Origin: a virus
Lineage: Duplodnaviria > Heunggongvirae > Uroviricota > Caudoviricetes
DNA length: 27,371 nucleotides
Virus record (IMG/VR): IMGVR_UViG_2617270978_000023
Direction: 5' to 3' (one strand)
Shown here: positions 18,484 through 18,912 of the stretch, piece by piece
How positions within the stretch are numbered: the first letter of the stretch is position 1
Layout: each line of letters begins with the position of its first letter
Program-made: the position numbers and the translations under genes
The notes under the pieces: generated by a model
Database searches by the model: none
Told to the model about the DNA's origin: nothing
The model's input: the letters and a program-made list of their open reading frames with translations, nothing else

Positions 18484-18539
18484 ATCGGCTGAACCTCAGC
18501 AACCAGTTGACGGGGACTTTCGTCCCCGTCGCGGTTTTC

Positions 18540-18680
18540 CTACTGCTTACACTGTAAGAACGCCGCAAACTCCGCTCCCCACAAATTCAGCCGGAACTCA
18601 CACAACGAGCCGTGTAACATCCAGATGGTGAAGATTACCGTCATACAAATTGTGACGGTGATGAGCGATTTTTGCGACAT
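18540..18680 (-). CDS. hok: Hok/Gef-family type I toxin (46 aa), absent from the supplied ORF track
   Basis: Manual translation gives MSQKSLITVTICMTVIFTIWMLHGSLCEFRLNLWGAEFAAFLQCKQ. It carries the hallmark SLCE...E(F/V)AAF(L/M)..C pattern of Hok/Gef (compare recalled HokA FTWMIRDSLCELHIKQESYELAAFLACK). SD aggagg sits 7 nt upstream of the ATG. Confidence 0.7.
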   Translation of the reverse strand: MSQKSLITVTICMTVIFTIWMLHGSLCEFRLNLWGAEFAAFLQCKQ

Positions 18681-18863
18681 AGCGCTTGCCTCCTGAGTGG
18701 AGAGGCGCTAACCTTCTACTTGCTTAAGGTATGATGGTTAGGGCCTCGGGTTAAACAAAATGTTTGACTCGGGGCCTTTCCACATCGGGCCTTCAGGTTC
18801 ACCTTCCAGCCATCAGCCGAAAGACACCCGCGCATAATCTACGATTTTTGCCCTGCACGGGCA

Positions 18864-18890
18864 ACAAAAAACCCGCCATCACAGCGGGTT
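18864..18890 (-). terminator. Rho-independent terminator after the Ail/Lom-like gene
   Basis: Minus-strand reading: stem CCCGCTGTGATGGCGGG then TTTTTTG, 22 nt after the stop. Confidence 0.7.
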
Positions 18891-18912
18891 ATGACATGTT
18901 GTCGGGTATTAC

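Follow-up and report, generated by a model that had tools for sequence, protein, structure and literature searches.

A probable hok/sok-type toxin-antitoxin locus without mok in a 933W-like prophage

In the hok/sok system of plasmid R1, the mok reading frame has to be translated up to the hok Shine-Dalgarno (SD) sequence, and mutations of the mok start codon as well as premature mok stops abolish Hok toxicity (PMC9841398). A phage-borne relative, hokW-sokW of Sp5, has been shown by experiment to be a toxin-antitoxin system of type I and to help phage release (Takada et al. 2021, PMC8621323), and a recent survey grouped 1264 Hok peptides by 60% identity into 61 clusters (Escalera-Maurer et al., bioRxiv 10.1101/2025.08.07.668861). 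Here we describe a hok locus in a stretch of viral DNA of 27,371 nt (IMG/VR record IMGVR_UViG_2617270978_000023, hereafter the window), corresponding to the right arm of a prophage that resembles 933W (Sepvirinae). An earlier note on this DNA had proposed a hok-family type I toxin locus, and the family match and the hok-mRNA architecture bear this out: the locus is probably a hok/sok-type type I toxin-antitoxin module. Its 46-aa peptide is clearly under purifying selection, yet mok is missing.

The encoded peptide is a genuine member of the Hok/Gef family, far beyond chance. It matches the Pfam profile HOK_GEF (PF01848) with 33.2 bits (E=4e-8), above the curated threshold of 22; profile positions 6-42 of 42 are covered by residues 8-44. 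When aligned with HokA, HokC, HokW and R1-type Hok, all taken from database records, nine residues are invariant (M1, C12, T14, L26, C27, E28, E37, A39 and F41). The likeness to known Hoks, which the earlier note had wanted checked, is therefore not coincidental, and the good SD it had pointed out is indeed present as GGAGG. Seven of these residues (M1, C12, T14, L26, C27, E28 and E37) are the counterparts of the seven logo positions (M1, C16, T18, L30-C31-E32 and E41) conserved in >80% of the 1264 surveyed peptides (10.1101/2025.08.07.668861). The sequence also contains an N-terminal hydrophobic stretch (LITVTICMTVIFTIWML), a hydrophobic helix being a feature of the family. In Escherichia, Shigella and Salmonella together, 56 homologs reach E<=0.001, many of them named Hok/Gef family protein by their source. 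Compared with relatives that encode the identical peptide, including loci with and without a mok-like frame, nonsynonymous divergence (dN) is 0 while synonymous divergence (dS) reaches up to 0.35, and dN/dS is ~0.2 for the hok gene across the family. PADLOC returned no model matching the peptide or its neighbours at the locus, and a search with canonical Hok queries, afterwards checked against records, found no further hok in the window.

The earlier note had expected a mok frame overlapping hok within the leader, and this expectation failed. The mok start of R1-type hok, hokC, hokW and hokA is formed by GAGG followed 7-9 nt later by ATG; for hokA, the intact locus of strain B7A was used, as that of IAI39 carries IS150. 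At the site where these four have ATG, the window reads CCATC (GAGGCCCTAACCATC). Neither the window nor any relative examined has the canonical mok ATG at this position. No open reading frame (ORF) initiated in the leader at ATG, GTG, TTG or CTG reaches the hok SD in the window, and the same is true of 29 of 48 distinct relatives. The remaining 19 have ORFs in the -1 frame that overlap hok and start at mRNA nt 17, 45 or 102. Upstream of hok, its own frame is interrupted by a TAG (18710-18708), which lies inside the near-invariant -10 element of the Sok promoter.

The closest canonical Hok is HokA from the E. coli chromosome, with 43% identity in the alignment (45% by BLASTP). Both loci share the two cysteines, the motifs (S/P)QK...TxWM...SLCE...AAFL.CK, the Sok -10, read as AGGTTA on the mRNA strand, and a 3' end of GCACCC. 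However, intact hokA (B7A) retains the mok start as GAGG-N7-ATG, which is lacking in the family to which the window peptide belongs (cluster 72 of the survey); HokA has 50 aa, and its gene is chromosomal rather than phage-borne, in B7A between glyS and a gene annotated as cspE. Candidate counterparts of several features of plasmid R1 hok/sok can be recognised in the locus, namely of the tac/fbi closure, of the ucb/anti-SD pairing with GAGG, of the dcb element (GCCUCU), of the stem-loop ending the truncated mRNA and of a cis-antisense Sok over the leader, the latter being predicted here. It differs from R1 in peptide sequence (30% identity in the alignment), in the absence of a mok ORF and of a visible terminator hairpin past fbi, and in its setting, since R1 hok/sok is a plasmid stability locus and the window locus a prophage moron.

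HokW-sokW belongs to the same phage group and resembles the window locus in its identical Sok promoter (TTGCCT-17-TAACCT), its mRNA ends (5' GGGUG...3' GCACCC), its leader hairpin and its GAGG. The hokW toxin, in contrast, has 51 aa (MKQQKAM...) and is 35% identical to the 46-aa peptide, and an in-frame mokW begins at CCATG where the window reads CCATC. Identity of the two loci was considered and rejected, as the window contains neither the hokW primers nor the hokW start sequence and the peptides share only 35% identity. In phage 933W (NC_000924), hokW/mokW/sokW is annotated at 58460-58734, and the gap between lom and p67 (45428-45856, 429 bp) is unannotated and encodes the identical 46-aa Hok with synonymous coding differences only, ~13 kb from hokW. 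Thus 933W and Sp5 carry two hok loci of which only hokW has been studied, and the published hokW-sokW deletion removed only one of the two (PMC8621323). The second module next to lom in 933W/Sp5-type Stx phages deserves consideration when phenotypes of hokW-sokW deletions, such as lysis timing and phage yield, are interpreted. The slot that holds hokW/mokW/sokW in 933W, between the giant LPD5 protein and ant, is filled differently in the window (4297-6765), where it contains an IbrA-like PAPS-reductase/DUF3440 protein (4297-5523, plus strand), an overlapping ORF of 214 aa (5508-6152, plus strand) and a SocA/Panacea-domain, antitoxin-like protein (6241-6765, minus strand). Relative to the hokW position of 933W, this region is a swapped cargo slot.

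The toxin gene itself was correctly recognised in the earlier note and is already known, being annotated, catalogued and included in a published toxicity set. Its description there as unannotated does not hold for RefSeq/PGAP, which names the identical gene 'Hok/Gef family protein' (WP_000078907.1, likewise adjacent to lom), and does hold for the 933W reference record, where the homologous gap is blank. Table S2 of the survey lists the exact peptide as 72_1589, with SD GGAGG, plasmid LRP157 and the label HAC, which we read as high-abundance cluster (10.1101/2025.08.07.668861). It belongs to cluster 72 of the survey (peptides 72_1589 and 72_1621) and does not differ from 72_1589 at the peptide level. 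The peptide was cloned in pAZ3 as LRP157 for an arabinose toxicity assay, in which 42 of 45 homologs were reported as toxic; three (19_179, 60_1482 and 69_1540) were named as non-toxic, and 72_1589 is not among them (10.1101/2025.08.07.668861). The toxicity test that the earlier note had proposed has in effect been carried out by others on the bare coding sequence. Mok, Sok and mRNA ends were explicitly outside the analysis of that preprint (10.1101/2025.08.07.668861), and the regulatory anatomy described here is therefore additional. A full-text literature search with the peptide motif AAFLQCK returned no paper, and a literature search on O157 for evidence from RNA-seq yielded nothing specific. 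A minor lesson for annotation is that a toxin gene of less than 60 aa escapes length cut-offs and the old 933W reference annotation.

To describe the regulatory region, 87 related loci were collected and reduced to 64 distinct sequences with 62-100% identity; an alignment-based scan of genome contigs contributed only 7 loci, and the diversity was supplied by viral contigs. The features of the locus are collected in Table 1. The hok promoter is conserved in its -35 element TTGCC(G/C) in 53 of the 64 loci, in its -10 element TA(G/A)ATT in 56 and in its 17-nt spacer in 61, and its -10 aligns with those of hokC, hokW, hokA and R1-type hok. On the opposite strand, where the earlier note had suggested looking for a promoter within 18680-18780 and for an antisense element of the Sok type, a promoter was found whose hexamers and spacing equal those upstream of annotated sokW in 933W; for sokW, a -10 mutant was reported to have lost antitoxin activity (PMC8621323). 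Among the 64 relatives, the -10 TAACCT and a -35 of the form TTGNNN are each present in 63, and a spacer of 17-18 nt in all 64. The Sok-like RNA that would arise from it, its start set 7-8 nt past the -10 after annotated sokW and sokC, is predicted to fold with -28.1 kcal/mol (z=-5.47), and the complement of the long leader hairpin corresponds to its terminator stem. The most variable stretches of the alignment are the patch facing the predicted Sok tail and the upper part of the leader hairpin (18769-18752). Variability of the patch is as expected of a specificity determinant.

The predicted full-length transcript folds with a minimum free energy of -152.3 kcal/mol (z=-6.38), its 5' 17 nt pairing with its 3' 18 nt. 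When this fold was placed on 47 distinct relatives, double-sided changes were found at 20 pairs, compared with 12.2+-1.8 in shuffles (0 of 500 reached this number) and 4-12 in controls with slid partners, and the covariation score was 0.119 compared with 0.036-0.047 for slid partners. Compensatory pairs occur in the helix between the leader and the 3' untranslated region (3'UTR), namely 107-355 (UA18/CG13), 119-346 (GC24/AU21) and 120-344 (AU25/GC21), and in the stem-loop directly past the hok stop, namely 325-334 (AU28/GC19) and 326-333 (AU20/CG20/GC6). TAG/TGA triplets of the leader at 18716-18718 were considered as conserved stops of an upstream ORF and rejected: changes there are matched by compensating ones in the 3'UTR (pairs 119-346 and 120-344) and hence reflect covariation of RNA structure, not an upstream ORF.

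The GC-rich hairpin that the earlier note had placed after the stop at 18513-18540 is present, although its position is 18508-18531. As no T-run follows on the coding strand, it is not a classical terminator there, and by analogy with the truncated hok mRNA of R1 (Tr-hok, PMC9841398) it is likely a protector of the 3' end of the processed hok mRNA. Read on the plus strand, the same hairpin has a T-rich tail (CGGTTTTCCT) after it and a terminator-like score; it could also halt antisense transcription entering hok from downstream.

Removal of the 3' 31 nt changes the predicted fold, in that the 5' end switches to GGAAAGGCCCC and GAGGC pairs with GCCUC. The RNAalifold consensus of the family shows the same pairings as this truncated fold (columns 1-11 with 50-59), with pairs that hardly vary. 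A rearrangement of tac/ucb and of the mok SD with dcb has been described for the R1 mRNA (PMC9841398), and the modelled switch mirrors it. In the alignment, the GAGG of the leader stands where R1-type hok, hokC, hokW and hokA have their mok SD.

Table 1 Features of the hok locus in the window (coordinates of the 27,371-nt stretch).
Feature	Position	Strand	Remarks
hok-family toxin gene	18540..18680	-	46 codons plus TAG; peptide MSQKSLITVTICMTVIFTIWMLHGSLCEFRLNLWGAEFAAFLQCKQ
hok Shine-Dalgarno GGAGG	18693-18689	-	8 nt 5' of hok ATG; in the full-length fold hairpinned with CCUCUCC (helices 8 and 9)
hok promoter	18836..18864	-	-35 TTGCCC (18864-18859), 17-nt spacer, -10 TAGATT (18841-18836)
Predicted full-length hok mRNA	18475..18829	-	355 nt, 5' GGGUGUC to 3' GGCACCC
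tac-like 5' element (GGGUGUCUUUCGGCUGA)	18813..18829	-	Pairs with 18475-18492 in the full-length fold and with GGAAAGGCCCC (18780-18770) when truncated
fbi-like 3' element (UCAGCCGAUAUGGCACCC)	18475..18492	-	Partner of mRNA 5' end
Long leader hairpin	18741..18780	-	5' arm GGCCCCG equivalent to ucb/anti-SD; 3' arm CGAGGCC carries former mok SD (GAGG); helix 5
Variable patch	18716..18742	-	Target of the predicted single-stranded Sok 5' tail; holds 5' arm (18730-18716) of leader/3'UTR helix
3'UTR arm of long-range helix	18493..18506	-	Partner of leader 18716-18730 (helix 6)
GC-rich stem-loop directly past hok stop	18508..18531	-	Helix 18, 100% paired
Sok-type antisense promoter	18686..18714	+	-35 TTGCCT (18686-18691), 17 nt, -10 TAACCT (18709-18714)
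Predicted Sok-like RNA	18722..18779	+	~58 nt: 14-nt unpaired 5' tail, hairpin of ~18 bp, then UUU

Taken as a hok/sok module, the locus would operate as follows. A constitutive promoter on the minus strand would give rise to an mRNA of ~355 nt, in which the tac/fbi closure and the pairing of leader and 3'UTR would bury the SD and AUG of hok and keep the full-length molecule inert. Slow trimming of the 3' end as far as the post-stop stem-loop would free the 5' end of the mRNA, which could then pair with GGAAAGGCCCC and let the leader refold into a translatable form that binds Sok. The former mok SD (GAGGC) sequesters the anti-SD GCCUC in the fold predicted for the truncated mRNA, and without mok, Hok would most likely be translated from its own strong GGAGG once refolding exposes it. 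From the plus strand, TTGCCT-17-TAACCT would drive an unstable Sok-like RNA of ~58 nt, its 5' tail being complementary to the leader's hypervariable patch. Binding of Sok would silence the mRNA through RNase III cleavage and/or a block of the refolded leader. Once Sok synthesis ceases, for example when the element is lost or the prophage induced, the 46-aa Hok would be translated, enter the inner membrane and collapse it.

Several points weigh against this picture. By analogy with R1 (PMC9841398), a locus without mok might be translationally silent from its own transcript, and the published toxicity assay used the bare coding sequence behind an artificial SD rather than the native locus (10.1101/2025.08.07.668861). 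A strict scan for the sigma-70 consensus missed both the hok and the Sok promoter, which were placed by homology. The Rfam model RF01794 'sok' aligns in full length to the leader (18669-18829, minus strand; E=7.5e-6, the model starting at 18829), but its score of 34.1 is below the gathering score of 59, so that the match is seen at relaxed thresholds only. When the window fold was placed on the relatives, 92.8% of cells were paired compared with 37-42% for slid partners, a percentage that is inflated because the fold was derived from the window sequence itself. The complementarity of tac and fbi is kept in 98.5% of cells for helix 1 and 87% for helix 2 (92.8% overall; slid controls 17-45%), yet this helix is almost without covariation in the family, as it is nearly invariant; its support comes from complementarity and from the boundary of the homology block, not from covariation. 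Both ends of the mRNA, like the Sok RNA itself, are predicted. The biological role, too, is drawn from hokW-sokW by analogy and would be an aid to lysis upon induction and/or retention of the prophage.

Since R1 needs translation of mok up to the hok SD, the subfamily without it either translates Hok directly after refolding or stays silent. Of these two, we favour direct translation. Somewhat short of an even chance, in our estimate, is the fuller proposal that cluster 72 represents a naturally mok-independent variant of hok/sok, which has kept all RNA switches of the R1 type, including the former mok SD (GAGG) and its anti-SD, while losing the leader ORF. In that case Hok would be made from its own GGAGG after refolding, and Sok would act through duplex formation and RNase III or by blocking ribosome standby or an anti-anti-SD, and not through mok. 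As a corollary, with two hok loci in 933W/Sp5-type Stx phages, the second locus may buffer the published hokW-sokW deletion, whose phenotypes are partial. An abundant subfamily that lacks mok, which is mandatory in the R1 paradigm, but shows RNA switches and selection on the toxin would offer a convenient natural setting in which to test control of Hok translation without mok. Residual interest in the locus lies in this mok-less architecture and in its overlooked redundancy with hokW in Stx phages.

The alternative that survives best, although we consider it unlikely, is a silenced or decaying hok relic, where the native transcript yields no toxin without mok and the module is baggage. The absent canonical mok ATG, the lack, in the window as in 29 of 48 distinct relatives, of a leader ORF reaching the hok SD, and the loss of toxicity in R1 mutants of the mok start or with premature mok stops (PMC9841398) would all fit such a relic, as would the failure in post-segregational killing of chromosomal hok loci, which have been proposed to be inactive (introduction of 10.1101/2025.08.07.668861). 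A decaying locus is, however, hard to reconcile with purifying selection on the peptide whether or not a mok-like ORF is present (dN=0 at dS values up to 0.35; dN/dS ~0.2), with the conservation of both promoters in nearly all relatives, with compensatory changes that maintain RNA helices, and with a module that is widespread in intact Stx-type phages (198 records, 186 with at least 80% coverage).

Far less probable is a canonical, mok-dependent locus in which mok starts from a non-canonical or upstream codon, such as the AUG at 18785-18783 (mRNA nt 45). This codon is preceded by GAAGG and sits within the Sok-complementary region, it opens an ORF of 52-79 codons in some relatives, and 19 of the 48 distinct relatives do have the -1 frame ORFs overlapping hok. 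Yet neither start position nor frame is conserved among these, and in the window the ORF comprises 15 codons and ends at UAA 18740-18738, 58 nt before the hok AUG. Near the former mok SD, the sole near-cognate codon (AUC) leads to an ORF of 3 codons, and stops close all frames upstream of hok, among them TAG 18710-18708 within the Sok -10 (TAACCT in 63 of 64). Finally, a chance open frame in an intergenic spacer with a coincidental likeness to Hok, to which the mere 46 codons, under the first-stage ORF cut-off, might have pointed, is already refuted by the Pfam match above the curated threshold (E=4e-8), the 56 homologs at E<=0.001 in Escherichia, Shigella and Salmonella, the conserved RNA architecture, the codon-level selection and the presence of the peptide in a published toxicity test set.

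The hok locus is flanked by lom and a phrog_610 gene. On the minus strand, the gene order is tail fibre, membrane moron, Ail/Lom (18913-19650), hok locus, phrog_610, 611, 596, 601 and a giant protein of 2787 aa. A 551-bp query of the hok region matched 198 phage records, mostly of Stx-converting phages, of which 186 cover at least 80% of the query. Among 5426 complete E. coli genomes, 1750 matched as well, and in 417 of these the query was covered to 80% or more. Homology among the loci begins at the -35 of the hok promoter and ends sharply after GGCACCC (18475) in at least three genomic contexts, namely between lom and p67, directly after a tail-fibre gene, and between a regulator and a DNA methyltransferase. 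The same module ends in differing contexts indicate a self-contained cassette with classical hok boundaries. The module is thus an independent cassette, or moron, between lom and the next gene of the structural region.

Near-identical hok loci were also encountered in contigs labelled Xanthomonas pisi (857 bp), Planococcaceae (a metagenome-assembled genome) and Vagococcus sp., which most likely represent enterobacterial contamination or mis-binning. The gene downstream of hok, encoding 133 aa, has its annotated ATG at 18483 (minus strand), inside the fbi element. Because the phrog_610 profile aligns from residue 9 only and hok homology ends at 18475, its true start is probably the ATG at 18459.

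At the other end of the window, positions 1-2397 (plus strand) hold a host molybdopterin oxidoreductase gene with Pfam Molybdopterin, Molydop_binding and Fe4S4 domains, which places an end of the prophage or an attachment site at ~2400-2800. Rfam at gathering thresholds found nothing at the hok locus and two matches to sRNA-Xcc1 (RF02221) elsewhere in the window, both on the plus strand, at 2808-2896 (69.1 bits) and 3345-3430 (73.4 bits). The first copy is located ~40 nt upstream of an ORF for an AntA/AntB-type antirepressor (2937-3221), the second within a called ORF (3309-4100), ~100 nt upstream of the start of its AntA domain (residue 75). Their positions suggest a structured leader or small RNA tied to expression of the antirepressors.

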